Assembly: GCA_963705985.1 (NCBI GenBank)
Contig: CAVPLK010000004.1
Span: 200,173-264,172, forward strand
DNA: 64,000 bases
Reading direction: 5' to 3'
DNA from: an uncultured Gemmatimonadales bacterium
GTDB taxonomy: Bacteria > Gemmatimonadota > Gemmatimonadetes > Gemmatimonadales > GWC2-71-9
The translations under genes were made by a program, and so were the position numbers. The number at the start of each line of letters is the position of its first letter. Position 1 is the stretch's first letter. Positions 6,826-40,914 of the stretch are shown here, in pieces. The notes below the pieces were generated by a model, which did no database searches, had not been told where the DNA came from, and saw nothing but the letters and a program-made list of their open reading frames with translations.

Positions 6826-7910
6826 GCTCCTCGGCACATTGCTCCTGCTCCTCGTCGTGGCGGCTCCCGCCAGCGCCCAGTCCCCCCGACGGCACAACGT
6901 GGTCCTCATCGTGACCGACGGCTTCCGCTGGCAGGAGCTCTTCGGCGGCGCCGACCCGGCGCTCAACAACGCCGAGTACGGCGGCGTCGAGGACACCGCC
7001 GCGCTGCGGCGCGCCTTCCTGGTGGGCGACGCGGAGGCCAACCGCCGGGCGCTGATGCCGTTCATGTGGAGTGTCATCGCGAACCGAGGGCAGCTCTTCG
7101 GGGACCGGGCCCTCGGCAGCGATGTCGTGGTGACCAACGGGTACAAGTTCTCGTATCCCGGCTACAACGAGATGCTGACCGGCAAGGCCGACCCCCGCAT
7201 CGACCGGAACGACTACGGCCCCAACCCGAACGTGACGGTGTTCGAGTGGCTGGCGGGGCAGCCGGAATTCGCGGGACAAGGTGGCGGCGTTCGGCACCTG
7301 GGACGCGTTCGCGTCGATCTTTAACCAGGACCGCGCCCCGATGTGGGTCCGAGCCGGCTGGGATCCGCCATTTCCCGGCGACACCGCCCCTCGCCGAGTT
7401 CTGCTCGACACTCTCTACGCCACCACCACCCGCGTCTGGCAGGAAATGCCGTACGACGCCTTCATGCAGGCAGTGGTCATGGACTACGTCCAAACCGAGC
7501 GGCCCCAGGTGCTCTACATCGGCTATGGCGAGACCGACGAGTGGGCCCACGAAGGCCGATACGACCAGTACCTGGCCTCGGCGCACCGGGTGGACGGGTT
7601 CATCCGCGATCTCTGGAATACGATGCAGTCACTGCCAGAGTATGCCGACATGACGACCTTCATCATCACCACCGATCACGGGCGCGGGAGCGGGTTGAAG
7701 GCGTGGCGCAATCACGGCGCCAAGGTCGAAGGCGCGGAGTACATCTGGGTGGCGGTGCTTGGCCCCGAAACCCCGGGCCTCGGCGTCCGGCACAACCTGC
7801 CGGAGTTGACGCAGGCGCAGATCGCAGCGACGGTGGCGGCGGCGGTGGGGATGGATTGGGTGGCCGAGTCCGGCGCGGCGCCGCGGCTGCCGGTGTTTCG
7901 GAGTCGGTAA
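6818..7910 (+). pseudogene. Secreted alkaline-phosphatase-superfamily enzyme (type I phosphodiesterase-like), one frameshift near 7280
   Basis: Signal peptide MNRLLGTLLLLLVVAAPASAQ. VVLIVTDGFRWQE...FIITTDHGRGSG...WRNHG. The frame changes 2>0 at QPEFAGQ|VAAFGTWD. Confidence 0.7.
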
Positions 7911-7947
7911 CAGAAGCTCACGCGAAGGCGCGAAGCCGCGAAGGACG

Positions 7948-7987
7948 TCCCCCCTCTCCGCTTGCCGGAGAGGGGGACAGGGGGTGA
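7948..7987 (+). repeat. Intergenic hairpin element, family 1, copy A
   Basis: tCCCCCCTCTCC-gcttgcc-GGAGAGGGGGa-CAGGGGGTGA. It lies between convergent genes. The same element recurs at 8774-8815 and, inverted, at 12501-12543. Confidence 0.85.
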
Positions 7988-7995
7988 CATCTCGC

Positions 7996-8607
7996 CTAGA
8001 ACACGAACATCACCCCGCCACTGAGTTCCCCCTGCGTGAAGAAGACCCCGTCGGAGGATGTAATGACGCAGTAGCCCGGCAGGCTGCACCAGAACTCGGT
8101 GTTGGAGGAGAGGGTGCTCATCCAGAGCCGTATCTGGGCGCGGAAGCCGATGTGCTGGTTCACCCAGGTCTTGAGTCCGAGCGCGCCACCGAAGGAGAAG
8201 ACCCATTCGTCGCCGAGGTCGTCGTTCTGCGGGGCAAGGTGGGTCCCGCCCACGGTCAGGGCAAAGAACGGCTTGGTGTTCGGGTTGTTGCCGAACTCGA
8301 GTGCGCCGCCGATCTGGAGATATTCGATAGCGGCGTCGCCCACGGTGTATTTCCCGGCGGTGTCGGGCTTGAAGTCGATGCTGGTGGATTGCCGGCTGTA
8401 GACCAGCTCCACCAGCCCGTCACGCTTGACGCGAAACCCGATGGTTCCGCCCCAGGCGAGGTTGTCATTGGCCGAGAACTGGCCGGTCTCGCCGTTGACG
8501 GTGCCGCCAAAGCGGTAACCGATGGTGGGCGCAATCTCGAAGCTGGACTGCGCAGCGAGAGGTGAAGCGGCAATCAACAACATCCCGACAATCCCGAACC
8601 GTTGCAT
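7996..8607 (-). CDS. Outer-membrane beta-barrel protein (OmpW/porin-like)
   Basis: Signal peptide MQRFGIVGMLLIAASPLAAQ, alternating beta-strand pattern, C-terminal ...GGVMFVF (aromatic terminus). The start is taken at the second Met of the ORF. Confidence 0.75.
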   Translation of the reverse strand: MQRFGIVGMLLIAASPLAAQSSFEIAPTIGYRFGGTVNGETGQFSANDNLAWGGTIGFRVKRDGLVELVYSRQSTSIDFKPDTAGKYTVGDAAIEYLQIGGALEFGNNPNTKPFFALTVGGTHLAPQNDDLGDEWVFSFGGALGLKTWVNQHIGFRAQIRLWMSTLSSNTEFWCSLPGYCVITSSDGVFFTQGELSGGVMFVF

Positions 8608-8687
8608 GGATACCCCATTCAATAGTCATGAGTCCGTCCAAAGAATACGCGAACCGATCCTTCGGGAGGAGTCCTTTGCGCCGCTTT

Positions 8688-8723
8688 GCGTCTTTGCGGT
8701 GAAGCGCAGTTGACGCAAAGACG
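8688..8723. repeat. Perfect 11-bp-stem hairpin
   Basis: GCGTCTTTGCG-gtgaagcgcagttga-CGCAAAGACGC, flanked by CGCGAAG-type short repeats that also occur at 7921-7945 and 8877-8895. Confidence 0.7.
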
Positions 8724-26693: not shown

Positions 26694-27849
26694 TCACATC
26701 CTCCGCCAGAGCCAGTCCTTTTCCAACATCACCTTGACGCCGTGCCAGAGCCGTCCAGGCGGCCGCAATGTGATCTGGGGGACTGGCTCGGCATAGAAGT
26801 TCCCTTTCCCAAATCCTGCCTTGCCGTCGCCCACTTCAATGAAGCAGCCACCATCCCCCGTGAACATGCCCGGCTTCCCTTTGCCGGTAATGCGGTGCGC
26901 GATATTGCCGGCTACTACCTCGGCCTGGGCGCCGGCGAACACACCGGCCTTCGGCAGCGGCTTCCCAAGGGCGAGGGGAATGGACACGACATCTCCCAAT
27001 GCGAAGACCCCCGCATAGTCGGTTTGCATGGTGCTCCGGTCGACCGAGACCCACCCACCGGCGCTGGCAAGCCCCGACGCACGCACCACGGCGGGCACCC
27101 GGTGCGGCGGCACATAGGCCAGCAGGTCGTAGCTCGCCTCAGCCCCATTCGCGAATTGGAGGCGCCGAGCAGCAGCGTCCACGCTCAGAACCTGGTGTTC
27201 CGGATGGTAGCCGATGCCCTTGGCCTCGATCATCTGGCGAACAGCCGCAGACACCGATGCACCGGCGACGCCCATGGGGCCGGGTTCCGCTGCGTAGAGC
27301 ACGAGTTCCGTCGCGTCACGGATACGCCGCTTGCGGCAGGCAGCCTCGAGCAGCATGGCGGTCTCATACGGCGCCGCCGGACACTTGTAGGCCGGCGCGG
27401 CAGTCAGGACGATCAACCTTCCGCCCGACAAAGCTGGCGAACGCATCTCGAAACCCCTTCGCGCCTTCCAGCGTGTAGACATTGTGCCCCGCGCTGGCCA
27501 GACCGGGAATGGACTCCGGCGCGAGTTCGGCTCCGAGGGCGATGATCAGGACATCGCCGATGAGCCGGCGCCCGGACACCGTGACCTCCCTCGCCTCGGG
27601 GTCGATGCGTTCAATCTCGCCGTGGACGACTTCGATTCCCTGTCGCACCAGCCCGTTAAGCGACTTCGAAATCTGATTCTCCGTCCGATCGCCGGTCGTC
27701 AGCCAGATCAGGGACGGCGCAAACACGAACGACGGGGCTCGTTCAATGAGGACCACCCGGTGGGGTTTGGGAAGCAGAGCACGGAGCCTGGTGGCCGCCG
27801 CGATCCCGCCGATTCCACCGCCGAGCACCAGGATAATCCGTGTAGGCAT
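26694..27849 (-). pseudogene. SQR-like FAD-dependent pyridine nucleotide-disulfide oxidoreductase, one frameshift at about 27425
   Basis: RIILVLGGGIGGIAAA (GxGxxG)...DAFASFVG|GRLIVLTAAPAYKCPAAPYE...VFALGDV. The switch coincides with the CCC run at 27424-27426 (plus strand). Confidence 0.8.
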
Positions 27850-27858
27850 CGACCCTCC

Positions 27859-28209
27859 CTAGAACACCAGTGTCTGGTCCGCTTCCGCGGTCCAGGTGGT
27901 CCATTCCTCGAGCGAGCTGCGGCGAGCACCATCGAGGAGCTCCGGTTCGGCGATTCCTCTCGCGTCCATGCAGGTACCGCAGACGCCGACCTGTCCGCCC
28001 TGCCGGATCACCGCGCTGAGCATGGTTTGGATGTTGTAGTAGCCGTTGGGAACCTTCTGGCCGCTCTTGGCGCAACTGGCGGCATCCCCAGCCAGGAAGA
28101 CGCGCACCTCGACGCCAGGACGTTTGGCCAACGAGCCCGCCAGTCGCAGCCCGTTGTACGAGCGCTCCGATCCGTACGGGCCATCGTTGAGGGTGACAAG
28201 GAACATCAT
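27859..28209 (-). CDS. DsrE/TusD-family sulfur-relay protein
   Basis: AGGAGG RBS. MMFLVTLNDGPYGSERSYNGLRLAGSL...VFLAGDAASCAKSGQKVPNGYYN...VCGTCMDARGI. ATGA overlap with the upstream regulator. Confidence 0.8.
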   Translation of the reverse strand: MMFLVTLNDGPYGSERSYNGLRLAGSLAKRPGVEVRVFLAGDAASCAKSGQKVPNGYYNIQTMLSAVIRQGGQVGVCGTCMDARGIAEPELLDGARRSSLEEWTTWTAEADQTLVF

Positions 28210-28886
28210 GCGGCCTCCTCTTTTCCCCTGACCTCGACCGGAAGCCCGGCAGCGCGCCATTCCGGAAACCCGTCCCTGAGTCGCCTGGCCGAGCGTCCAC
28301 GTTTCCTGAGCAACTCGACCGCCTGGAATGCCATGACGCAATACGGCCCTCGGCAGTATGCGACAAACTCGCCATCGACGGGAAGCTGGCGCATGCGCTT
28401 CTCCAGTTGATTGATCGGAATCGACACGGCACCAGGAATGTGCCCCGAGCGGTACTCCTCGACCGGCCGAACGTCCAGGACGGTGACCGTCCCTGCACGG
28501 GCCCTCTCCAGCAGGCCCTCGCGGGCTACCGGCTCGAGATGATCCCGATCAGTGAAGTACATCTCGACCATGGCGCCCACCTCGGACACGTGGCGCTCGG
28601 CGAGCGCGCGGATCATCCGTGCAAGGTCATACACCCCGGGTTCTGTCAGGCGGTAGAAGACATAAAGCCCGGCTTTCCGGGCCTGGACCAGGCCGGATTC
28701 GCGGAGGACTTGCAGATGATGGGAGGTGTTCGCGACGGATTGCCCCGTCTCCCGGGCGAGCACCTCGACGACACGCTCTCCCTGGGCAAGCACTTCAAGC
28801 AGTTCCAGTCGTCGAGGGCTGGCGGCCGCCTTTCCGACCCGGGCGAGCTGCGCGTAGAGGAGGTTCTTGGGCCTGCGGTGGGACAT
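28206..28886 (-). CDS. ArsR/SmtB-family transcriptional regulator fused to a rhodanese domain
   Basis: PRRLELLEVLAQGERVVEVLARETGQSVANTSHHLQVLRESGLV (wHTH), then VLDVRPVEEYRSGHIPGAVSIP...VAYCRGPYCVMA (rhodanese active-site Cys loop). Confidence 0.9.
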   Translation of the reverse strand: MSHRRPKNLLYAQLARVGKAAASPRRLELLEVLAQGERVVEVLARETGQSVANTSHHLQVLRESGLVQARKAGLYVFYRLTEPGVYDLARMIRALAERHVSEVGAMVEMYFTDRDHLEPVAREGLLERARAGTVTVLDVRPVEEYRSGHIPGAVSIPINQLEKRMRQLPVDGEFVAYCRGPYCVMAFQAVELLRKRGRSARRLRDGFPEWRAAGLPVEVRGKEEAA

Positions 28887-29102: not shown

Positions 29103-29507
29103 TTATTGCATCTGCACCGCGAAATTGATGGTGCCCGTGTAGTGCGCGAGCGTCACACCGATCTTCCAGGGGCCAGCCGATCCGGTCGGAGGTGTGATAT
29201 CACCGCTGGCTGGAACGTTGCCGTTGTAGATGACGGCCCCGCCGGCGTCCTTGATACTGAGGGTGACGGTCCCGGAAGTAGTGTTCGTGGCGGGGTGAAT
29301 CACGACGCTGCCGGAGGAGGCGTTCCAAGTGTACGAAACGGCGTCGCTGACGTCTGCGAGCCCGGTCGCCTGAAAGCTGAAGGCGATGTTGGGCGTATTC
29401 ACGACCTCGGGCTGGAACTGGGGGCCCAGGGCGTTGTCACTACCGCAGGCCGCTGCCAACAACGCCAGCGCCAGCGTAGACAGGGTGAGGCGAAAGTTGG
29501 TGCGCAT
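29103..29507 (-). CDS. Lipoprotein, unknown function
   Basis: Lipobox LALLAAAC and a beta-rich 134-aa body. I recognise no family motif. Confidence 0.6.
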   Translation of the reverse strand: MRTNFRLTLSTLALALLAAACGSDNALGPQFQPEVVNTPNIAFSFQATGLADVSDAVSYTWNASSGSVVIHPATNTTSGTVTLSIKDAGGAVIYNGNVPASGDITPPTGSAGPWKIGVTLAHYTGTINFAVQMQ

Positions 29508-29697: not shown

Positions 29698-29714
29698 TGT
29701 ATCGACACGATACA
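29698..29714. promoter_or_regulatory. Perfect palindrome TGTATCG-aca-CGATACA
   Basis: Read directly, in the same intergenic region. Confidence 0.3.
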
Positions 29715-31252: not shown

Positions 31253-32859
31253 CGGCGTGGCCCCACTCGCCACCCGGAGAGATCGCTCAGCCAGGAGTAG
31301 GGGTTGATGGTGACCCCCTCGACCCTGCGCGACACACCGGCCACCTGCATCGGCGCATACAGGAAGAGCGCCGGGGCGTCGGCGTTCAGGGTATCCATGG
31401 CGGCGCGGTACAGGGGACCGGCCGCCGCCGTGTCTGGTGCAGCGACCGCCCGGGCGAAGAGTGCGTCAAACTGCGGGTTGTCGTAGCGCCCGAAGTTGAG
31501 CTTGCCCCAGCCGCTTCGTGCCCACTGGTCGGCCAGGCCGCGCGGGCTCGGCTCATCGAGCCAGGCGCCGACGTAGCTGTCGAAGGCGCCCGCCGCCAGC
31601 CGCTGGCTGAAGACCGGGAAGTCCACCGCGGTGACCGTCACCTCCACGCCAAGCAGCTTCCACGACTGCTGCAGTGCCTGGGCGAGGTCCTTCCGTGTCG
31701 GGCTGGTGCCGGGGACAAGGATGTCAAACGTGAGCATCTCCGATCCGCGCCGCCGCACGCCGTCGCCGCCGCGGGTCCACCCGATCGAATCGAGCAGGCG
31801 ACCGGCGGCGGCAGAATCAAAGGGCAGGACGTGAATATCGGGGCTGTTGATCCAGAGCAACTGCGACATCGGACCGGAGGGCGCCACGGTCCCGTCGCCA
31901 AAAATGCCGACGGCCAGCAGCGGACGGTCGATGCCCAGGGCAAGCGCGCGGCGGAGGGCCCGGTCCCCCAGCAGCGGATGCCGCCTGTCCTTGGGGTTCA
32001 TGAGCTGGAATCCCAGGAACCCGTAGGCCGCCGAGGGATAGTGAATCAATTGAATGTTGGTATCGGAGGCCACGCGGGCCACGCGGGACGGCGGGCCGAG
32101 TTGCTCGACCAGATCGGCTTCGCCCGAGAGGAGGAGGTTGACGGCGGCATCGGGATCAGGCACGAAGCGCCAGATGACACGATCAATCGCGCCCCCGCTA
32201 CTCTGGTCCGCCTCGAGCCGGAGCGACTGCGCCGGCACCCACTCGGCCACCCGGAACCTGCCGCTTCCCACCACATGTGAAAGCGCGGTGTCCCCTTCCC
32301 ACTGTTCACGCGGAATCGCCTCCCAGATGTGCGCCGGGAGAATCCGTACGTGCCAGGTCGCGTCGTACCACTGTTCGGGATAAGTGCGGGCAAAGCGAAC
32401 CAGTACGGTGGAGGAGTCCACGGCCTCGACCGTTGCCTGGCCGGTGAGCGCCGGCCCCGCTTCCGTATCGAGCGCCGGATCAGTGTAGACGGCAAACGAG
32501 AACACCACGTCCTGGGCAGTCACGGGCACACCGTCCTGCCACACCGCATCGGGCCGCAGGTGGAAACGGAGCGTCAGGCTGTCCATCCGCTCCCATCGGT
32601 CGGCAAGCGCCGGGCGGTAGCCGGCGGGATCGATTGGCGCGGCCCCCGGCGCCAGGTCTGCGAGCCGCTCGAAAACCTGGTCGGTGATGTCGCGCCCGAC
32701 CGTCTCATAGACCAGCGGAGGGAACAGCGACGACGGTTCGCCTGCGGCCGCGATGACCAGGGTGCCGCACTCCTCGCACGCCAGCGACCGGTCCGACGCG
32801 CAACCCGCCAGCGCCGTCAGGAGGGCCAGCGCAGCCCCGGCGCGTCTTGCGACAGTCAC
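31249..32859 (-). CDS. ABC transporter substrate-binding lipoprotein, family 5 (peptide/nickel type)
   Basis: GTG start (GTGA overlap with the PspC stop). Lipobox LTALAGC. ...LADRWERMDSLTLRFHLRPDAVWQDGVPVTAQDVVFSF... Confidence 0.85.
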   Translation of the reverse strand: MTVARRAGAALALLTALAGCASDRSLACEECGTLVIAAAGEPSSLFPPLVYETVGRDITDQVFERLADLAPGAAPIDPAGYRPALADRWERMDSLTLRFHLRPDAVWQDGVPVTAQDVVFSFAVYTDPALDTEAGPALTGQATVEAVDSSTVLVRFARTYPEQWYDATWHVRILPAHIWEAIPREQWEGDTALSHVVGSGRFRVAEWVPAQSLRLEADQSSGGAIDRVIWRFVPDPDAAVNLLLSGEADLVEQLGPPSRVARVASDTNIQLIHYPSAAYGFLGFQLMNPKDRRHPLLGDRALRRALALGIDRPLLAVGIFGDGTVAPSGPMSQLLWINSPDIHVLPFDSAAAGRLLDSIGWTRGGDGVRRRGSEMLTFDILVPGTSPTRKDLAQALQQSWKLLGVEVTVTAVDFPVFSQRLAAGAFDSYVGAWLDEPSPRGLADQWARSGWGKLNFGRYDNPQFDALFARAVAAPDTAAAGPLYRAAMDTLNADAPALFLYAPMQVAGVSRRVEGVTINPYSWLSDLSGWRVGPRR

Positions 32860-33065
32860 GTCGCGTCCTGATCTTCGGGAATCACCATCCAGAGGACGAT
32901 GTACACCAGGATGCCGGGGAATGCCGCGGAGACAATGGACGCCACGACATAACCAGCCCGCACCAGCGTGGGATCGAGGTCAAAGTACTCGGCGAGCCCG
33001 CCGAGGACGCCAGCGATCATGCGGTTCTTGCGGGACCGGTGAAGGGGGCGGGTTGAACTGGACAT
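32856..33065 (-). CDS. PspC-domain membrane protein
   Basis: LHRSRKNRMIAGVLGGLAEYFDLDPTLVRAGYVV...ILVYIVLWMVIP. 69 aa. The start is taken at MSSSTRP. Confidence 0.8.
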   Translation of the reverse strand: MSSSTRPLHRSRKNRMIAGVLGGLAEYFDLDPTLVRAGYVVASIVSAAFPGILVYIVLWMVIPEDQDAT

Positions 33066-33152
33066 CGAAGGGTCCTTGTGAGGGATTGGACTCAATATAA
33101 GGAGTGCCGGGGGTGGACCGTGGGCTCGCGTCGGACCCCCACGCGGGCCAAA

Positions 33153-33188
33153 CCGCTTGCCCTCGTTGCAACGTATCATTACAAGCGG
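33153..33188. promoter_or_regulatory. Nested inverted repeat, candidate enhancer (UAS) for the sigma-54 activator
   Basis: CCGCTTG-N22-CAAGCGG enclosing the 10-bp palindrome CGTTGCAACG (33164-33173). It lies 90-125 nt upstream of the -24/-12 element. Confidence 0.3.
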
Positions 33189-33277
33189 TATTCTTCCGAT
33201 GCGATTCTCGAGGACAATCAACCTGGCAGAATTGCGTAACTCACCATATGACAACATGTTAGTCCTGACGGCATTGC

Positions 33278-33292
33278 TGGCACCCGGGTTGC
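33278..33292 (+). promoter_or_regulatory. Sigma-54 (-24/-12) promoter
   Basis: TGGCAC-ccggg-TTGC matches TGGCAC-N5-TTGC, with GG to GC spacing of 12 nt. It lies 54 nt upstream of ATG 33346, with AGGAGG at 33333-33338. A sigma-54 activator is encoded in the operon it precedes. Confidence 0.75.
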
Positions 33293-33345
33293 CCTTGAGG
33301 GAGTCGAAACCATTGGCTCTTCGCACTTCTTCAGGAGGTCATAGC

Positions 33346-34116
33346 ATGTCACGCAATCGTCAGCTGGTCGGTGCCCTCGTCATTGCCGGCGCGCTCGCCG
33401 CGTGTGATTCTTCCGGCCCCGCCAGCCAGAACCCCGCAGTCTCGCTCAACATCGCCACGCGCGGTACCGCCGCAGCCGCAGCACCTGGCCTGCAGCTGAG
33501 CGGGGGGCCGGTGGAATACACCGACGGCACCAACACGCTGGTGATCAATAGCGTCGAGATGGTGGTCAAGGAAGTCGAACTCAAGCGCTCCGAGTTCAAC
33601 AGCCAGTGCGACAGCACGGCCTCGGAGGATGAATGCGAGGAGCTCGAGTCGGGTCCCTACCTGCTCGACCTGCCGCTTTCCGCCGGCGCCACCTCGGTAG
33701 TGACCGTGGACGTGCTGCCGGGGACCTATGACGAATTCGAGTTCAAGATTCACACCCCCTCTGACGACGCGGAGAACGCCGCCTTCCTGGCCGCCCATCC
33801 CGATTTCGAGGGCGTCAGCATCCGGGTGACCGGCACGTGGAACGGCGCCGCGTTCACCTACGAGACCGACGTCAGTGCCGAGCAGGAGATGGACCTGGTG
33901 CCGCCGCTCGTCGTCACCGATGCCGGGACCTCCGACTTCACCCTGTACATTGATATCGGCACCTGGTTCCGCGCCAACGACAACTCGCTCATCGACCCGT
34001 CCAGCGCCAACAACGGCGGTCCGAACGAGAGTATCGTCAACAGCAACATCACCAACTCGTTCGACGCTTTCGAGGACGAAGACCACGACGGCCACGACGA
34101 CCACGGAGGGGATTGA
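33346..34116 (+). CDS. Lipoprotein (DUF4382-like) with an acidic/His-rich C-terminal tail
   Basis: Lipobox AGALAAC. ...LVINSVEMVVKEVELK...YLLDLPL...VLPGTYDEFEFKI... Tail FEDEDHDGHDDHGGD. Confidence 0.7.
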   Translation: MSRNRQLVGALVIAGALAACDSSGPASQNPAVSLNIATRGTAAAAAPGLQLSGGPVEYTDGTNTLVINSVEMVVKEVELKRSEFNSQCDSTASEDECEELESGPYLLDLPLSAGATSVVTVDVLPGTYDEFEFKIHTPSDDAENAAFLAAHPDFEGVSIRVTGTWNGAAFTYETDVSAEQEMDLVPPLVVTDAGTSDFTLYIDIGTWFRANDNSLIDPSSANNGGPNESIVNSNITNSFDAFEDEDHDGHDDHGGD

Positions 34117-34133
34117 CCTGACCACGGCACGGC

Positions 34134-35471
34134 ATGGCTGAACGCACCCCGATTGTGGAGGCTGTCGTCATCAGCGACAGCTTCCATGGGTCGCTCGCCG
34201 ACCTGGTGAAGGAGGTGGGGGGGCGACTGTCCACACGGACAGCCGGGGGCGAAGCCCCGGCCGAAATCCCGGCAGCGGTGATCGTGATGGCAGGAGGACG
34301 GGAGGGGGAGGCGCTGGCACAGTTGCCTCCGCTCGGCGCCGCTCCCTGGTATTTCATCGGCTCGACGGTGGACCACCGCATTGCGGCCGCGGCCGTCCGG
34401 GCCGGTGCGAGCGACTACCTGGTCCTGCCGGAAGACCTCGACGTCCTGCGGCGCTCGCTCGAGCGGGACATCCGGACCGCGCGCGCCCGGGTGGACGCGG
34501 CGGAATTTGCCGCCGAGGAGGGTACTGGCGCCGGCTTCGCGGCCATCGTGGGCCAGAGCCCCGACCTGGTCGCCGTACTCGACCAGGCAAAACGGGTCGC
34601 CCGCCACGCCGATGTCACGGTCCTCCTTGGCGGCGAGACCGGCACCGGCAAGGAGCTCCTGGCGCGGGCCATTCACTACGCGAGCCCCCGCGCCGCCCAA
34701 CCGTTCGTGGAGGTGAATTGCGCGGCGATTCCGGCCAACCTCCTCGAGAGCGAGCTGTTCGGGCATGAGCGCGGCGCCTTCACGGGCGCGGTGGCCGCCA
34801 AGCCCGGACTGTTCGAGCAGGCACATGGCGGGACGCTCTTTCTCGACGAGATCGGGCAGCTACCGCTCGAGCTCCAGGGAAAGCTGCTGCGGGCGCTGGA
34901 AAACCGGGAGATTCGGCGGGTCGGCGGCACCACCACCAAGAAGGTGGACATTCGGCTCCTGGCCGCCACGCATCTCGACCTGGCTCGCGCAGTACGCGAC
35001 CAGACCTTTCGGGAGGACCTGTACTACCGGCTCAACGTCGTCCGGCTGGTGCTGCCGCCGCTACGGGACCGCGGCGCCGACCTCGTGACGCTGGCGGAGA
35101 CGTTCGCCGCCGAATTGGCGGATCGGTATGGACTCCCGATACCTGCGAGCGGCCCCGAGTTCCGTCACGCACTGCGGGCCCACGCCTGGCCGGGCAATGT
35201 GCGCGAACTGCGCAATGCGATCGAACGAGCACTGGTGCTCTCCAAGCCCGGCACGCTGGATGTCTCCGCGCTCGACTTCGGCGCGGCGCCGACTGCAGAC
35301 GAGGGGACGCCCGGCGGTGCACTTCCCTTCCCCGCCGACCTGGCCACGATCACCATGGCCGCCGTGCGGGCAACGCTCGATCTCTGCGGCGGCAACAAGA
35401 GCGCCGCCGCGCGTCAACTCGGCATTTCGCGCCCCCGGCTGCAGCGGGTGCTCGACCAGACGGACGACTGA
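34134..35471 (+). CDS. Sigma-54-dependent transcriptional activator (bEBP) with a degenerate receiver-like N-terminal domain
   Basis: GETGTGKE (Walker A), ESELFGHERGAFTGA (GAFTGA), WPGNVRELRN, HTH GGNKSAAARQLGISRPRLQRVL. The N-terminal domain has AVIVMAGGREGE where D-x-x-M-P-x-x-D-G is expected, and DYLVLP instead of DYLxKP. Confidence 0.9.
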   Translation: MAERTPIVEAVVISDSFHGSLADLVKEVGGRLSTRTAGGEAPAEIPAAVIVMAGGREGEALAQLPPLGAAPWYFIGSTVDHRIAAAAVRAGASDYLVLPEDLDVLRRSLERDIRTARARVDAAEFAAEEGTGAGFAAIVGQSPDLVAVLDQAKRVARHADVTVLLGGETGTGKELLARAIHYASPRAAQPFVEVNCAAIPANLLESELFGHERGAFTGAVAAKPGLFEQAHGGTLFLDEIGQLPLELQGKLLRALENREIRRVGGTTTKKVDIRLLAATHLDLARAVRDQTFREDLYYRLNVVRLVLPPLRDRGADLVTLAETFAAELADRYGLPIPASGPEFRHALRAHAWPGNVRELRNAIERALVLSKPGTLDVSALDFGAAPTADEGTPGGALPFPADLATITMAAVRATLDLCGGNKSAAARQLGISRPRLQRVLDQTDD

Positions 35472-35500
35472 TGCATTTCGACTTCGTGAAAGGACTTTCC

Positions 35501-36115
35501 ATGCGACCCGCCCGATTCCTTCCGCTCCTCCTGGCCGCCGCCCTGGCGGCGTGCAGCGACTCCGGCGGGCCGGACACCAGCGGCGTGAAGCCACCGAGCG
35601 AGCTGACCATCATCCGGCTCCCGGCCGGCAGTACGCCGATCTGGAATCCGGTAGACTCGTTCTACGCCAAGAAGGGCGCGGATCGCGAGCTGCGGATCTA
35701 CTTCACCAATGCCAACGGCAACGGTCCCGGCGAAGAGTACCTTCGACTGCGCGTCGACGCCCCGACCCTGCTGGCGCGCCCCGACGGGACCCTGTTCCAG
35801 GTGGGCGACTCGGTGCTCATCACAGTGCGGGTGCAGGATCCCGCGCTCGTGCAGTTCGAATTCCAGCCGGCCGGGCTCACCTTCAATCCGAGCGTGCCGG
35901 CCCAGCTCAAGATCGAGTACGGGGAGACCGGCGGCGACCTGGACGACGATGGCGACGTCGACGCCGAAGACGCGACCATCGAGCAGATCATGGGGCTCTG
36001 GCGCCAGGAACAGCCGGGTGACTCGTACCTGAAGCTCGGCAGCGTCAAGGTCGAGGAGCTCGAGGAGATCGAGGCGGACATCCTCGGCTTCACCCGGTAC
36101 GCGATCGCCTACTGA
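35501..36115 (+). CDS. Lipoprotein with an acidic DDDGDVD segment, unknown function
   Basis: Lipobox LAAALAAC. GETGGDLDDDGDVDAEDATIEQ. The alternative start ATG 35471 (TGATG overlap with the EBP stop) adds 10 aa. Confidence 0.6.
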   Translation: MRPARFLPLLLAAALAACSDSGGPDTSGVKPPSELTIIRLPAGSTPIWNPVDSFYAKKGADRELRIYFTNANGNGPGEEYLRLRVDAPTLLARPDGTLFQVGDSVLITVRVQDPALVQFEFQPAGLTFNPSVPAQLKIEYGETGGDLDDDGDVDAEDATIEQIMGLWRQEQPGDSYLKLGSVKVEELEEIEADILGFTRYAIAY

Positions 36116-36122
36116 CGACCCG

Positions 36123-37016
36123 ATGACCACGCCTCCCGCCGCCGATCCCGGCACCGTGCTCCGCGACGCCACCGCCGCGATGCGCCAGGGCGACCTGCCC
36201 GGCGCCGCCGCGCTGGCGGCGGCGGCCGAAGCGCGCTTCCGCGCGCGGGGGGACGCGGACGGCCGGATGCGTTCCGAAAACCTGCTCGGCGCGGTCGCCT
36301 GGGAAACCGGACACGTCGGGGACGCGGAGCGGTATTTCGGGGCGGCGCTGGAGCTCGCTCACACGCTCGACGACAGCCTGATGACGGCCCGCGCCTCGAA
36401 CAACCTCGCCTCCGTGGCGCACCTGACCGGCCGCCCTGACCTCGCGTTGAGTCTCTACCGGACCGCCCTGCTTTCCTATCAGCGGCTCGGCGATCGGCGT
36501 GGCATGGCGGAGACGTCGCACAATCTCGGCATCGCCTTCCGGCAGCTAGGGCAGTGGACCGATGCGGAACGGGCCGCGGAGGAAGCTGTGCGGCATGCCG
36601 AGCAGCTCGGCGACGCCGCCCTCCGCGGCCTGGCCCTGGTGGGATTGGCCGAACTGCACCTGGAGCTGAAGGCGTGGCCGCTGGCCGAGCGCGAAATCGA
36701 GCGCGCCGCCACCCTCGCCGCCGAAGGCGATGACCCCGTCGGCGTCGTGGAGGCGCGTCGGCTGCGGGCGGCGCTGCACCTGGGGCTTGGCCACGCGGTC
36801 GCTGCACTCGACGAGGCGGAGCGAGCGCGCGCGGAGGCCCGAGATCTTGGAACCGCCCTGCTGGAGGCGGAGTGCACCACCGTGGCCGCCCGCGCGGCGC
36901 GAGTCCTCGAACGCCACGAACTGGCCGAGTCGTTGCGGGCCGAGGCCGAGGCGGGGCTGACAGGGCTCGGCGCCGCCGGACTGCTCGACCAGCTCACAAA
37001 CGAGTGGGGCGCCTGA
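36123..37016 (+). CDS. TPR-repeat protein
   Basis: Repeated about 40-aa units of the type A..NLA.V....G....AL.LY..AL..Y..LGD..G.A....NLG.A. 297 aa. Confidence 0.75.
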   Translation: MTTPPAADPGTVLRDATAAMRQGDLPGAAALAAAAEARFRARGDADGRMRSENLLGAVAWETGHVGDAERYFGAALELAHTLDDSLMTARASNNLASVAHLTGRPDLALSLYRTALLSYQRLGDRRGMAETSHNLGIAFRQLGQWTDAERAAEEAVRHAEQLGDAALRGLALVGLAELHLELKAWPLAEREIERAATLAAEGDDPVGVVEARRLRAALHLGLGHAVAALDEAERARAEARDLGTALLEAECTTVAARAARVLERHELAESLRAEAEAGLTGLGAAGLLDQLTNEWGA

Positions 37017-37030
37017 TCGGCGCCCCGTTT
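37006..37030. terminator. GC hairpin between convergent genes (bidirectional terminator candidate)
   Basis: GGGGCGCC-tgatc-GGCGCCCC then GTTTCG. It overlaps the TPR stop codon and lies 12 nt from the EF-G paralog stop. Confidence 0.5.
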
Positions 37031-37041
37031 CGTCCGGCAGG

Positions 37042-39081
37042 TCAGTGCCCCTGCTCCTCCTTGTGCTCGTCTGCCACCCGGGTCGCCACGTCCGGCGGCG
37101 CCTCCACATATCCGTGGAAACTATGGCGGAAGGTACCGCGCCCGTGGGTGATCGAATACAGGGTCGTGGTGTACCGATAGAGCTCCGACTCCGGCACCAC
37201 GGCCTGCACCTTGGTCAGCCGACCATCGACTGCCGTCCCCAGAATTTGCCCGCGGCGTGCGCTCAGGTCGCCCATGACGTCGCCGAGCACATCGTCCGGT
37301 GTCCACACCTCCAGGTCGGCCAGCGGCTCGAGGAGCACCGGCCGGGCGTTTGGCGCCACGGTGCGGAACGCCAGGATGCCAGCCATCTTGAACGACATCT
37401 CGTTCGAATCCACATCGTGATACGACCCGTCGTAACACTCCACCTTGAAGTCCACCACCGGGTACCCGGCGACCACGCCCCGCTCCGCCGATTCCTGGAT
37501 GCCCCGATCCACGGCCGGGATGTACTTGTTCGGGATGACCCCGCCGACGATCTTGTCCACGAACTCGTAGCCTGAGCCGCGCACCTTCGGCGCGATGCGA
37601 ATCTTGCAGTCGCCATACTGGCCGCGGCCGCCGCTCTGCTTCTTGTGCTTCCCCTGCCCTTCGGCCTTCCCCTTGAACGTCTCGCGGTAGGCGATCCGCG
37701 GCCTCGCCAGGTCGGCGTGCACGCCGTACTTCTGCGTGAGGCGCCCGAGCAGGATCTCGAAGTGCCGCTCGCCCATGCCGTGGATCAGCGTCTGGCGCAG
37801 TTCGGAGTTGTACTCGAAGTGGAAGGTCGGATCCTCCTCGTGCAGCTTGTGGAGCCCGGCGGCGAGCTTGTCTTCCTCACCGCGCTGCTTGACCACCACG
37901 GCGGCCGAGGCCACCGCCTCGGGAAACGGAATCGGTGCGAGCCGGACCGGCGCGTCCCGGAGGCAGAAGGTGTCACCGGTATGGGTGTCGCGCAGCTTGG
38001 CGACCGAGCCGATATCGCCGGCGTGCAGTTCGCTCACTTCGGTGCGCTCCCGGCCCTGTTGTACCGAGAGGTGGTTCAGCTTCTCGCCCACCTCGTGGTC
38101 GGCGTTCCAGACGTCGGCACCGCTCTTCAGCGAGCCCGCATAGAGCCGGAACAGGGTGACATCGCCCACGTGCGGCTCGGACGTGGTCTTGAAGACCCGG
38201 CCGAGGAGCGGGGCGTCCACCGGGGGGGTGATCTCGGCAGCCGAGGGGAAAAGTTCGACCATCTTGGTGAGCAGCGCCCGCATGCCGAAGGTGAGCTGCG
38301 CGCTGCCGACGAAGAGCGGCACGATCGTGCCGGCAAGCACCGCCTTCTTGAGCGCCGCGATCACCTCGCTCAGCGGGAACGCTTCGCCGCTGAGATAGCG
38401 CTCGATCAGCGCGTCGTCGGTGGCCGCCACCGTCTCGATCAGCAGGTCGGTGTATTTCTTGACCACGGCCTGATAGGCCGCGGGGACGTCGACCTCTTCG
38501 TACTCTCCGGACTTGGTCCCGGCGGTGTAGAGGTGCGCCTTGCCGGAAAAGAGGTTCACGATGCCGCCGAACTGGGAGCCGCCTCCGATCGGGATTTCGA
38601 CCGGCAGGACCTTGGGCGTCAGGTGCACCTTGATGTCGGCAAACACCCGCTCGAAATCGGCGTTGTCCTTGTCCATCTGGCCCACGAAAAGCAGCCGCGG
38701 CAGATGCAGCTGATCGCAGACTTCCCAGACTTTTTCCGTCCCGACCTCGACGCCGCTCATGCCGCTCACCACCACGACCGCCGCGTCCGCGGCGTGCAGC
38801 GCGGTGATCGCCTCCCCGAAGAAGTCGAGATAGCCGGGGGTATCGAGCAGGTTGAGCTTGGTGTCCATCCACTCGGCATAGGCCAGGCCCAGGCTGATCG
38901 AGTGCTGGCGGGAGATTTCGTCGGGAGTGTAGTCGGTGAGGGTCGTGCCGTCCTTGATGTTCCCGTGGCGCCGGCTGGCACCAGACACAAAGGCGAGAGC
39001 GTCAACCAGGGTGGTCTTGCCGCTCCCGCCGTGGCCGACAAACGCCACGTTGCGGATCGCGTCCGAACCATAGACACGCAT
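37042..39081 (-). CDS. Elongation factor G paralog (EF-G-like GTPase) with a non-canonical G4 motif
   Basis: AAGGAGG RBS 8 nt before ATG 39081. G1 GHGGSGKTT, G3 DTPG, and domains II-V (…HVGDVTLFRLYAGSL…, …GMGERHFEILLGRL…, …SNEMSFKMAG…). G4 reads GQMD (ggc cag atg gac, 38671-38682) instead of NKxD. Confidence 0.9.
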   Translation of the reverse strand: MRVYGSDAIRNVAFVGHGGSGKTTLVDALAFVSGASRRHGNIKDGTTLTDYTPDEISRQHSISLGLAYAEWMDTKLNLLDTPGYLDFFGEAITALHAADAAVVVVSGMSGVEVGTEKVWEVCDQLHLPRLLFVGQMDKDNADFERVFADIKVHLTPKVLPVEIPIGGGSQFGGIVNLFSGKAHLYTAGTKSGEYEEVDVPAAYQAVVKKYTDLLIETVAATDDALIERYLSGEAFPLSEVIAALKKAVLAGTIVPLFVGSAQLTFGMRALLTKMVELFPSAAEITPPVDAPLLGRVFKTTSEPHVGDVTLFRLYAGSLKSGADVWNADHEVGEKLNHLSVQQGRERTEVSELHAGDIGSVAKLRDTHTGDTFCLRDAPVRLAPIPFPEAVASAAVVVKQRGEEDKLAAGLHKLHEEDPTFHFEYNSELRQTLIHGMGERHFEILLGRLTQKYGVHADLARPRIAYRETFKGKAEGQGKHKKQSGGRGQYGDCKIRIAPKVRGSGYEFVDKIVGGVIPNKYIPAVDRGIQESAERGVVAGYPVVDFKVECYDGSYHDVDSNEMSFKMAGILAFRTVAPNARPVLLEPLADLEVWTPDDVLGDVMGDLSARRGQILGTAVDGRLTKVQAVVPESELYRYTTTLYSITHGRGTFRHSFHGYVEAPPDVATRVADEHKEEQGH

Positions 39082-39336
39082 GGTCTGCACCTCCTTGAAT
39101 CAGTGTACAGGGATAGTGCGGCGCAGGAGGCGTGTTGTCAAATGGACCCTCCGGCGGACTTCGGATGAGCGAATGGAGAGCTGTGAAGCGAGTGTGAAGG
39201 AGAGAGGAAGGAGAAGGAGGACCGAGGGCCGCTGCCCATTCATTGCATGTCATCCCGTGGGCCGCCCGCCTCCATCCCGGCCGTGAAAACCCCCTCCCCG
39301 CTTCCCCGCCTCTCCACATTCCGCTAGCCTTCCACG

Positions 39337-40914
39337 ATGCCGTTCCCCACGCCCAAACGACTGCGCCGGCTGCTCTCCCCGGGCGCCCTGACGGCCCTCG
39401 CGATGCTCAGCGGGTGGGCAGGCGTGTACCTCGTCTGGCGACAGAGCCTCGTTGGGCTGGCGCTGGCGGTGGTGACGACCGCCCTCGCGTGGGCCGGCTA
39501 CCGCCGGGGCCGGACGCTGGCTCGCCGCCAGGCGCGGTCACTCCGCGACGCCCTCTCGGCGGCCGCCGCACGCAACCGGGAGCTGGAACGGCTCCGGCAG
39601 CTGGCCGCCAGCCTCCTCGCCGGACGGAGCCTCGAGAGCATCCTCACCGAGGTGACCCAGGCGGCGGCGGACCTGCTCGAAAGCGAGGCCGCGCTCGTCG
39701 CCCTCGTCGTCGAGGAAGGCCGGTTTCTCCGCATTGCCGCGGGCTCTGGCCCGCTTGCCCCGGTCATCGGGCAATTGCTCCCGGTGGACCACTCGCTTTC
39801 CGGCTGGGTCGTGGTGAATGACCAGTCGCTCCTGAGCGAGAACATGGACGCCGACCCGCGGAGCTTTCGGCCGGAGGGCACCCCGGCATCGCTCCGGAGC
39901 GCCGCGCTGGTCCCGCTTCGCTCGGCGGGACTCGTGATCGGGACGCTGAGCGTCCACAACCGCCGCGACGGCCGTCAGTACGATGACGACGCGCTCCAGC
40001 TGCTCCAGACCCTCGGCGACCAGGTGGTCGTGGCGCTCGACCGTACCAACGTGCTCGAGGAAAGCCGCCGGAACGAACATGCGCTCGCCGTCAAGAACCA
40101 GGAGCTGGTGCGCGCCACCCAACTCAAGAGCCAGTTTCTCGCCAACATGTCCCACGAGCTCCGCACTCCGCTCAACGCCATCAACGGATTCTCCGACCTC
40201 CTGCTGACGGAGGCGGTCGGACCGGTCAACCCCGAACAGCGGGAGTTTCTCGATGCGGTGCTGCGCAATGGCCAGCACCTGCTCGAGATGATCAACAGCG
40301 TCCTCGACCTTTCCAAGATCGAGGCGGGGGCGATGAGCCTGCAGCTCGCGCCGACGGATCTCCGGGAGGCCGTCACCGCCGCGGTCGCCGACACCGCCAG
40401 CCTCCGCACGGTCCGGCGCCAGACCTGCACCGTGGAGCTCGACGACGAGGCGCTGGTCGCCGTGACCGACGAGCTGCGGGTCAAGCAGGTGCTGATCAAC
40501 CTGCTCTCCAACGCCTCCAAGTTCACCCCGGAGGGAGGACAGATCCGTCTCGCGGTCGTCCGCACCCGTGCGCCGCTCCCGATTTCTTCGGGCATCGAGG
40601 GCGAGGGGGCACGACTCCTCTCCCGCGACGCCATCTGGGTCTCGGTCAGCGACACCGGCATCGGATTCCGGCCTGAGGACGCGGCCCGGCTTTTCCTCGA
40701 GTTCAGCCAGGTCGACAGCTCCGCCAGCCGGCAGCAGCAGGGCACCGGACTCGGCCTGGCGCTGAGCAAACGCTTCGTGGAATTGCACGGGGGCACCATC
40801 GGGGCGGAGTCGATTTTCGGTCGGGGGAGCACCTTCTGGTTCATTCTCCCGGTGGACGGCCCCCTCCCCGTCCAGGCCCCGACCGCCTTGCCCCACGCCG
40901 GCAAAGGCGTCTGA
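39337..40914 (+). CDS. Membrane-anchored GAF-domain sensor histidine kinase
   Basis: Two N-terminal TM segments, a GAF-like region, HisKA FLANMSHELRTPLNAI, and HATPase N/G boxes (LINLLSNASKF, DTGIGF, GTGLGLALSK). No response regulator is adjacent. Confidence 0.9.
   Translation: MPFPTPKRLRRLLSPGALTALAMLSGWAGVYLVWRQSLVGLALAVVTTALAWAGYRRGRTLARRQARSLRDALSAAAARNRELERLRQLAASLLAGRSLESILTEVTQAAADLLESEAALVALVVEEGRFLRIAAGSGPLAPVIGQLLPVDHSLSGWVVVNDQSLLSENMDADPRSFRPEGTPASLRSAALVPLRSAGLVIGTLSVHNRRDGRQYDDDALQLLQTLGDQVVVALDRTNVLEESRRNEHALAVKNQELVRATQLKSQFLANMSHELRTPLNAINGFSDLLLTEAVGPVNPEQREFLDAVLRNGQHLLEMINSVLDLSKIEAGAMSLQLAPTDLREAVTAAVADTASLRTVRRQTCTVELDDEALVAVTDELRVKQVLINLLSNASKFTPEGGQIRLAVVRTRAPLPISSGIEGEGARLLSRDAIWVSVSDTGIGFRPEDAARLFLEFSQVDSSASRQQQGTGLGLALSKRFVELHGGTIGAESIFGRGSTFWFILPVDGPLPVQAPTALPHAGKGV

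Follow-up and report, generated by a model that had tools for sequence, protein, structure and literature searches.

A stretch of 64,000 nucleotides from an uncultured Gemmatimonadales bacterium (contig CAVPLK010000004.1, positions 200,173 to 264,172; the whole stretch is called the window below) carries a genuine four-gene operon that is restricted to the phylum Gemmatimonadota. The operon encodes, in order, a lipoprotein (g1), a sigma-54 activator or enhancer-binding protein (EBP), a second lipoprotein (g3) and a tetratricopeptide repeat (TPR) protein (g4), and is preceded by a sigma-54 promoter. We consider it reasonably probable that the operon is activated by its own EBP independently of any kinase, with the two lipoproteins as its output and the TPR protein as the likely partner of the EBP.

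A four-gene operon of the Gemmatimonadota

The four genes lie on the plus strand between 33346 and 37016, separated by gaps of 17, 29 (or a 1-nt overlap, if g3 begins at ATG 35471) and 7 nt. A preliminary description of this DNA had given the same gene spacing, two lipoproteins, a complete EBP and a fourth gene consisting wholly of TPRs, each of which was borne out on re-reading the sequence. The components of the cassette are listed below.

33333..33338, plus strand: ribosome-binding site AGGAGG of g1, 7 nt before ATG 33346 (sequence reading)
33346..34116, plus strand: g1, a 256-aa acidic lipoprotein with a predicted beta-sandwich core, remotely DUF4382-like, and a C-terminal FEDExHDGxDDH loop (model and family alignment)
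34134..35471, plus strand: EBP, 445 aa, comprising a predicted pseudo-receiver, the AAA+ domain of a sigma-54 activator with Walker A and GAFTGA, and a Fis-type helix-turn-helix (HTH) (domain searches)
35501..36115, plus strand: g3, a 204-aa acidic lipoprotein with an EF-hand/dockerin-like loop DLDDDGDVDAED (family alignment and model)
36123..37016, plus strand: g4, a 297-aa predicted cytoplasmic all-TPR protein without a signal peptide (TPR_12, 68.8 bits)
37006..37026, no strand assigned: GC-rich hairpin GGGGCGCC-gatca-GGCGCCCC, with eight G-C pairs, overlapping the g4 stop codon

The start of g3 at 35501 is preferred because conserved 'KG' codons upstream of it coincide with an AAAGGA ribosome-binding site. 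A seeming N-terminal extension of g3 (MxFDxxKG, 35471-35500) is seen in many database entries and coincides with the AAAGGA of ATG 35501; many public g3 gene calls probably begin 10 codons too early.

Searches yielded 1007 homologues of g1 (1904 clusters at 50% identity), 569 of g3 and 510 of g4, and the organism names seen among them were all Gemmatimonadota. One genome per species was scanned, giving 278 genomes, and loci were taken from the best 80 of the 278, for which the genome record titles were nearly all those of Gemmatimonadota metagenome-assembled genomes. Sixty of these loci were evaluable, and their gene content was established by searching six-frame open reading frames (ORFs) with the window proteins. 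The architectures found were as follows.

g1-EBP-g3-TPR: 32/60 loci
g1-g1-EBP-TPR, without g3: 10/60 loci
g1-g1-EBP-g3-TPR: 9/60 loci
EBP-g3-TPR-g1: 2/60 loci
other (broken or g1 only): 7/60 loci

The four genes are syntenic in these relatives, as expected if they form the single unit put forward in the preliminary description. The EBP gene directly follows g1 in 53/60 loci, and the TPR gene and g3 are present in 56 and 46 of them, respectively. A TPR gene lies downstream in all 55 of the 55 EBP-bearing loci, ten of which are missing g3. Since the TPR gene is always kept with the EBP whilst g3 is dispensable, the invariant core of the module is g1, EBP and TPR. The same composition had earlier gone unrecognised as a described system, and likewise no paper on it was found in the literature searched. 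Two loci depart from the usual layout. One contig (L051, 1-9075) bears two cassettes, EBP-g3-TPR and g1-EBP-g3-TPR, with SBP_bac_5 on the other strand between them. In L003 (5437-8451) the EBP is called as 664 aa, extending into what is g3 sequence, and three ORFs share the TPR gene between them; these aberrant calls are probably due to frameshifts, which assembly error or decay would have introduced.

Two neighbours of the cassette, a PspC-domain gene (9/60 loci) and a histidine kinase gene (11/60 loci), are confined to close relatives and are not part of the module. The PspC-domain gene (33065..32856, 69 aa; PF04024, 1e-24) is divergent from g1. It belongs to a separate minus-strand operon, in which the next gene, for an SBP_bac_5 lipoprotein, begins within it and is followed by a DEDD exonuclease gene. 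It was this gene that had prompted a comparison with the phage shock protein (Psp) system, as the E. coli psp operon is sigma-54 and PspF dependent. However, a Psp-type envelope-stress regulon in which the divergent PspC-domain protein serves as the membrane sensor of the EBP is highly improbable. The idea is largely refuted by the synteny, with PspC adjoining the cassette in so few loci and here heading the operon that contains SBP_bac_5. Moreover, a domain search of the flanking genes found neither pspA nor pspB near the cassette, and the EBP possesses a 130-aa N-domain where PspF has none, reaching just 271.9 bits on the PspF model against a cut-off of 443.55.

The sigma-54 promoter and the upstream palindromes

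The region 5' of g1 contains the following elements.

33278..33292, plus strand: sigma-54 -24/-12 promoter TGGCACCCGGGTTGC, TGGCAC-ccggg-TTGC, with transcription expected to start near 33304
33167..33183, no strand assigned: distal upstream activator site, a 17-bp palindrome TGCAACGTATCATTACA with one mismatch to TGYAACG-N3-CGTTRCA, proposed as a site for an EBP dimer
33187..33203, no strand assigned: proximal, degenerate second site GGTATTCTTCCGATGCG, which starts 20 bp after the first and is kept nearly base for base in close relatives
33152..33189, no strand assigned: inverted repeat enclosing the first site, with outer arms ACCGCTTG / CAAGCGGT of 8 nt that are 100% complementary
33228..33265, plus strand: AT-rich block that separates the promoter from the activator sites and includes an IHF-like core, CAACATGTTAG (33252-33262)

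The promoter was scanned for in the window and its conservation was then measured in relatives. The element at 33278-33292 is the sole exact match to TGGCAC-N5-TTGC on either strand of the 64 kb, where 0.08 are expected; at least one exact match was present in 8 of 100 shuffles of the window. For the relatives, GG-N10-GC sites located 80-170 nt 5' of the lipobox Cys codon were scored against TGGCAC-N5-TTGC, taking as the unit 91 independent g1 genes (first or separately placed copies). An element scoring at least 8/10 with the GG and GC kept was found 5' of 77/91 of them, at a background rate of 2.4e-4 per nt, or about 0.02 per 90 nt searched. Ten further independent g1 genes carry an element scoring 7/10, and the median offset of the element is -126 nt from the lipobox Cys codon. 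The arrangement of duplicated genes follows the same rule. Second copies of g1 that directly abut another g1 have the element in just 1/13 cases, and where two copies are parted by an intervening gene each has a promoter. The -24/-12 element is therefore not a chance match and is conserved phylum-wide, which upholds the sigma-54 promoter first proposed from the window alone. A simple scan of 32800-37300 revealed no sigma-70-like promoter. A tandem duplication of g1 was seen in L002 (same contig as L017; 6931-8822), where the copies lie about 300 nt apart and both have an exact TGGCAC-N5-TTGC together with palindromes of their own.

To place the upstream sites, 60 promoters were aligned on their -24 element. 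A palindrome of the type TGyAACG-N3-CGTTrCA scoring at least 8/10 is present in 58/60 promoters, compared with about 10% of shuffles. Counted from the start of the -24 element, the best sites gather around -112 and -92, and 49 of the 57 good pairs have their starts 19-20 bp apart. In loci with a duplicated g1 the same type of palindrome stands 5' of both promoters. The preliminary description had drawn attention to a nested inverted repeat at enhancer distance. The repeat exists, with arms at 33152-33159 and 33182-33189, and palindromes do lie at that distance, but the outer arms are specific to the window and are not kept in relatives. The conserved part is instead the pair of sites at 33167-33183 and 33187-33203. 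Moreover, the stretch between -50 and -20 relative to the -24 element has an A+T content of 0.51-0.61 across the 60 promoters, compared with some 0.35 in the flanks, and a CAA-N4-TTR core recurs in this AT-rich block across loci.

We infer from this layout, a classical one in which activator sites and a DNA bend precede a -24/-12 promoter, that the EBP binds the two palindromes and that a bending protein occupies the AT-rich block. Dimers of the EBP would sit on two 17-bp palindromes approximately 130 and 110 nt 5' of the expected transcription start, the IHF-like segment would allow the DNA to loop, and the AAA+ ring would then open the sigma-54 closed complex. The recognition helix of the EBP is almost invariant (SRPRLQR). 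The autoregulation suggested in the preliminary description gains support here, as the EBP is encoded within the operon that it most likely activates and conserved palindromes stand at enhancer distance.

Elsewhere in the window, a perfect 17-bp palindrome TGTATCGACACGATACA was noted at 29698-29714, about 190 nt 5' of a 134-aa lipoprotein-like ORF (29103-29507, minus strand). It fits the activator-site consensus with 2 mismatches. It was considered as a second target of the EBP and rejected, having no correctly spaced GG-N10-GC after it; the lone GGCAC...GC between palindrome and ORF has an 11-nt spacing. The window as a whole contains 6 palindrome motifs where 4.6 are expected, no more than chance would give.

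The activator, the TPR protein and the lipoproteins

The EBP has all the parts of a sigma-54 activator. It matches Sigma54_activat (PF00158) at 1.3e-70 over model positions 1-167 of 168, along with AAA_lid_14 and HTH_8. The translation contains the Walker motifs GETGTGKE and LFLDEIG, and the sigma-54-contacting loop reads ERGAFTGA (nt 34773). The C-terminal Fis-type HTH (PF02954) scores 29 bits against a cut-off of 22, and its motif GNKSAAARxLGISRPRLQR is conserved family-wide. When looked for among public assemblies, the exact window EBP had no entry. The closest solved relatives are NifA, ZraR and FleQ, and scores on NCBIfam equivalog models are all far under the cut-offs. An assignment as the PEP-CTERM regulator PrsR (TIGR02915) was rejected for its score (329.9 bits against a cut-off of 502.6), the models for NifA, AtoC and NtrC scoring about equally. 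As a side observation, an [LI]PFPA motif is kept in almost all EBPs of the family directly 5' of the HTH domain, after a variable low-complexity linker (35320-35345, residues ~396-404 in the window). It could cap the DNA-binding domain or act as a docking peptide.

The N-domain is of a different character. Residues 1-136 of the EBP gave no match to Pfam Response_reg, even at E values up to 10. A profile made from 21 N-domains of the family nonetheless matched 44 PDB sequences, if only weakly. Nearly all are receiver domains, headed by a two-component response regulator (5.5e-4), LuxO (8.9e-4) and KdpE (3e-3). These alignments suggest that the N-domain is a diverged receiver. The position of the acceptor Asp, at the end of beta3, aligns to M52/A53 of V-M-A-G-G in the window EBP. 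In the 65 EBPs aligned, the sequence here is nearly always [LMAI]AGG (one ACGG, one AAAG), and in none is the residue acidic. Likewise, the receiver motif DYLxKP of beta5 aligns to DY[LF]xLP, the Lys being replaced by Leu98 in the window EBP and by Leu (once Phe) across the family. A receiver-like domain without the acceptor Asp and Lys, initially described from the single sequence, is thus a property of every family member examined, and since both residues are lost phosphorylation cannot be the switch of the EBP. The invariant residues of the N-domain (S14, S16, F17, G55, E57, G76, H81, R82, G91, D94, Y95, P99, D101 and L105) map to the four active-site loops of a receiver and to alpha4-beta5. 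The active-site face appears to be under selection in spite of its lost chemistry. The loops of the former active site are better conserved than the rest of the domain, and are therefore probable binding sites for a partner or ligand. The N-domain is joined to the AAA+ domain by a long helical linker of the kind found in NtrC1 and DctD (1ny5 aligns from residue 82), which suggests by analogy that an N-domain dimer may repress assembly of the AAA+ ring.

Two alternatives bear on this domain. Firstly, the EBP might still be phospho-controlled through a non-canonical residue, for example by the membrane GAF-HisKA-HATPase histidine kinase encoded 2.3 kb downstream of the cassette (39337-40914, plus strand). 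Given this gene, the earlier statement that no kinase is adjacent holds only in the strict sense; none lies inside the cassette. The kinase is membrane-anchored, has no response regulator alongside, and is kept 3' of an EF-G paralogue in close relatives only. Its lack of an adjacent response regulator and its retention in close relatives, together with two acidic residues that persist close to the former active site, D15 and the invariant E57, speak for such control. However, the acceptor Asp and Lys are missing in all family members and the kinase is linked to the cassette in 11/60 loci only, so that we give this alternative hardly any credence. Secondly, the pseudo-receiver may itself bind a small ligand or metal ion at its remodelled face, the TPR protein being an accessory without a regulatory role. 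In favour of this, invariant residues group in the four active-site loops (S14, S16, F17; G55, E57; G76, H81, R82; P99, D101), co-variation between the N-domain and the TPR protein is weak (see below), and the cation diffusion facilitator (CDF) genes and acidic lipoproteins found in this context suggest a cation signal. Against this, an N-domain with no Cys pairs and one invariant His makes a poor metal site, and the retention of the TPR gene in 55/55 EBP loci, even where g3 has been lost, would go unexplained. We therefore regard direct ligand sensing as rather unlikely.

The TPR protein is a plausible regulatory partner of the EBP, because it is predicted to be cytoplasmic, is of the peptide-binding TPR type and is present in every EBP-bearing locus. 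It scores 68.8 bits on TPR_12 against a cut-off of 30.1 and has no signal peptide. Among solved chains it comes nearest to the peptide-binding TPR scaffolds of Pins/LGN and kinesin light chain (3.9e-12), and an Asn ladder (N53, N93, N94, N134) is kept in at least 90% of 63 sequences. It also matches the TPR regions of AfsR and NsdA, and its homologues reach 40-41 bits on TPR_MalT, under the cut-off of 45. Among the 120 best g4 matches there was no TPR-EBP fusion, all being free-standing proteins. We also compared distance matrices between the genes by partial correlation, controlling for SBP_bac_5 and the AAA+ domain (mirror-tree analysis). The TPR protein gave partial correlations of 0.56 with g1, 0.50 with the HTH segment of the EBP, 0.43 with g3 and 0.17 with the EBP N-domain. 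The signal is crude and shared expression level can also produce it; it gives a weak hint that the TPR protein and the lipoproteins evolve together.

Put in mechanistic terms, the proposal of the preliminary description becomes a partner switch. The TPR protein would engage the EBP and also those parts of the lipoproteins that are tails or are not yet exported, and export or occupancy of g1 and g3 would set the amount of TPR protein free to act on the EBP. The cassette would then act as a sensor of envelope biogenesis, comparable to the type III secretion TPR chaperones that turn into co-activators once their substrates have exited. In its favour, the TPR gene is always encoded with g1 and EBP, the phylogeny-corrected TPR distances follow g1 and g3 better than the EBP N-domain, and the TPR fold is of the peptide-binding type. 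On the other hand, the mirror-tree signal may reflect no more than shared expression, lipoprotein export is co- or post-translational with no precedent for a link to a cytoplasmic TPR protein, and g3 is missing in 10/55 EBP loci. Taken together, we judge a partner switch to be unlikely, with little probability attached to it.

Both g1 and g3 are predicted to be bacterial lipoproteins that undergo lipidation. Their lipoboxes read LAAC|D in g1 (Cys invariant) and LAAC|S in g3 (Cys at least 90% conserved), and since each protein has a signal peptide and a lipobox both should leave the cytoplasm. The preliminary description had placed the lipoproteins, with the TPR protein, in control of the EBP. 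This part of the proposal was not supported, given the signal peptides and lipoboxes, the lack of any membrane-spanning protein encoded in the operon and the absence of g3 from 10/55 EBP loci. The two proteins are more simply read as the output of the operon than as controllers of the EBP.

No Pfam or NCBIfam model matched g1 or g3. The predicted structure of g1 is a beta-sandwich with a C-terminal helix (predicted local distance difference test (pLDDT) 76, predicted template modelling score (pTM) 0.73), and that of g3 is mostly beta (pLDDT 88, pTM 0.79). Matches to DUF4382 (PF14321) were found in 5/36 g1 members (best E 0.0012) and in two distant g1 relatives (20 bits in one), all of them sub-threshold, with the window g1 unmatched. 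As no member tested reaches the 25-bit cut-off, g1 was not assigned to DUF4382; for the function of that domain no paper was found in the literature searched. Nor could g1 and g3 be proven to be paralogues, as their hhalign probability of 89.7% comes from an alignment driven by signal peptides and first strands. An apparent g1-EBP fusion (P0330) was likewise set aside as what looks like a frameshifted gene call.

Several features of the lipoproteins hint at the binding of divalent cations. The mature proteins are highly acidic, with isoelectric points of 4.05 (g1) and 4.19 (g3), and g1 has 44 Asp+Glu against 7 Lys+Arg. The conserved C-terminal FEDExHDGxDDH of g1 corresponds to D244-x-[ND]-x-D248-G249-x-D251-D252, and a variable acidic loop, which in some paralogues has His-rich inserts, ends in an invariant Cys (C97 of the window g1). 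In g3 the loop D-L-D-D-D-G-D-V-D-x-x-D has D146, D150 and D157 invariant and G151 and D154 at least 90% conserved, with matches to Dockerin_1 that are sub-threshold only. The g1 tail and the g3 loop both show, in conserved form, the DxDxDG pattern of EF-hand/dockerin-type Ca2+ loops, for which acidic ligands at positions 1, 3, 5 and 9/12 are typical, and may thus bind ions. Moreover, eight loci (L041, gene 7792-8703; L032, L038, L042, L045, L060, L071 and L079) have a CDF gene placed downstream of the first sigma-54 promoter, with a g1 copy on either side. Its product matches Cation_efflux at 2.6e-43 and is closest to MamB, MamM, FieF and MntE. In these loci each g1 copy has a sigma-54 promoter with palindromes, and the second g1 often has a His-rich insert. 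A solitary g1 paralogue (L058, 7883-8386, minus strand) also adjoins a gene for a low-affinity iron permease (PF04120, 7.7e-53). Solitary paralogues (L058, L082 and L068) have GGCCC-N5-CTTGC-like elements and no palindromes, and for want of the latter they were not assigned to the EBP regulon. These acidic loops, His-rich inserts and transporter neighbours are hints only, and a role of the operon in divalent-cation or envelope homeostasis is no more than hinted at by them.

In the circuit that we favour, the remodelled loops of the N-domain would bind a partner or ligand in place of a phosphate signal. Feedback on the EBP would come from the cytoplasmic TPR protein encoded on the same mRNA, in a manner resembling that of PspA towards PspF or of FliX towards FlbD. 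The exported acidic lipoproteins, with their DxDxDG-type loops, would be the output and would probably serve divalent-cation or envelope homeostasis. A number of points weigh against this circuit. DxDxDG loops of secreted proteins are often merely structural, and the CDF gene occurs in a minority of loci. Foldseek searches against the PDB gave nothing below E 1e-3 for g1 or g3, the weak fold matches being MbnP for g1 (E 0.011, TM 0.30) and ankyrin ZU5 for g3 (E 0.04, TM 0.44). The low value between the TPR protein and the EBP N-domain reveals no specific pairing of the two. The case for EBP binding at the palindromes consists of their position and conservation, and co-variation between HTH and site is weak, a clade with SR[SA]RLQR having CCCG...CG inner bases in loose correlation. 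Lastly, no RpoN-box match was found in the window or in 83 loci, and for that reason the sigma-54 of this genome is only assumed. For the type strain of the phylum, that of Gemmatimonas aurantiaca, PMC3162934 (additional file 1) lists a sigma-54 homologue, and the adjacent figures there are taken to mean one sigma-54 and nine EBPs.

Genomic surroundings and comparison with known systems

Around the cassette, frequent neighbours on the opposite strand are SBP_bac_5 (43/60 loci) and an EF-G paralogue (30/60 loci). A wider survey of neighbouring genes found mostly housekeeping functions (RNase HII, L19, TrmD), the exceptions being the CDF gene and the one iron permease. In the window the EF-G paralogue (37042-39090, minus strand) converges on the cassette, and it belongs to the NF009381 subfamily (823 bits) and is EF-G2-like (621 bits). 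The hairpin at 37006-37026 sits between it and g4 and serves both, with a T-run on the minus strand and just GTTTCG after the hairpin on the plus strand. The terminal GC hairpin of the preliminary description is therefore present, though it ends at 37026 rather than 37030 and is common to the convergent EF-G paralogue. Further upstream, going by the ORF list, a FAD/NAD-type oxidoreductase-like frame (26694-27849, minus strand) appears to be broken into a pair of ORFs that overlap (27364-27849 and 26694-27482), perhaps through a frameshift or an error of sequencing. Beside it, ORF 28206-28886 (minus strand) resembles, in the same list, a fusion of an ArsR-type HTH with a rhodanese domain.

The Gemmatimonadota are abundant in soil and, to our knowledge, almost nothing is known of their gene regulation. 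The locus offers a complete and readable sigma-54 unit for the phylum, comprising a promoter, two putative activator sites, a potentially bendable spacer, an activator and its probable partner. The N-domain of the EBP would be a clean natural case of a receiver that has dispensed with phosphorylation and yet has a conserved active-site face. Two large lipoprotein families that lacked annotation are defined, whose acidic loops and occasional CDF partner point to cation handling. If the switch turned out to be the TPR protein, a new class of EBP modulator would be gained. A more speculative version, which we regard as possible though doubtful, has a free-standing MalT/AfsR-like TPR protein reading the signal for the EBP in trans, with the receiver as its docking module. 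This kinase-free 'split STAND-like' or chaperone-type switch would couple the state of the two lipoproteins, as acidic cation binders at the cell surface (in some species together with a CDF exporter) to their own transcription, and if true would define an envelope/cation homeostasis circuit specific to the Gemmatimonadota.

Among known systems, the EBP resembles the activators NtrC, DctD and NtrC1, with which it shares a receiver-like N-domain, a GAFTGA-bearing AAA+ domain and a Fis-type HTH. The cassette also resembles NtrC-type promoters with tandem sites (e.g. glnAp2) in having two likely dimer sites about two helical turns apart and approximately 110-130 nt upstream, a seemingly bendable segment before the -24/-12 promoter and the activator gene inside its own operon. 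It differs in that its EBP has no acceptor Asp, no Lys and no cognate kinase. Similar in their logic to what is proposed here are FleQ (with FleN) and FlbD (with FliX), whose N-domains are driven by a partner and not by a dedicated kinase. The AAA+ domain of FleQ is also near that of the EBP (2.3e-69), as are those of many EBPs. However, the partner here would be a TPR protein in place of a MinD-type ATPase or FliX, and the output lipoproteins instead of flagella. PspF and PspA are similar in that the activator drives an operon containing its own probable cytoplasmic antagonist, and in their envelope theme. Unlike them, the cassette has no PspA or PspB, its EBP has an N-domain and its PspC neighbour is not conserved.

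The zinc and envelope stress system ZraPSR provides a precedent for control of a periplasmic metal-binding acidic/His-rich protein by a sigma-54 EBP, to be set beside the CDF genes of the eight loci. The cassette differs from it in having no ZraS kinase, no homology to ZraP and a receiver-like domain that cannot be phosphorylated. The sensor TPR arms of MalT and AfsR (STAND proteins), and the TPR chaperones that act as co-activators in type III secretion (IpgC-MxiE and SicA-InvF), illustrate how a TPR superhelix gates an oligomerising NTPase activator or switches partners. In contrast to these, g4 is a separate 297-aa protein that falls under the TPR_MalT cut-off and is paired with an AAA+ EBP instead of a regulator of the STAND or AraC type. 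DUF4382 lipoproteins likewise combine lipidation with a beta-sandwich core, as g1 is predicted to do, although the matches of g1 stay sub-threshold. The regulatory machinery of the cassette is classical, and what is new is the pairing of a pseudo-receiver with a TPR protein, the two lipoprotein families and the restriction to one phylum.

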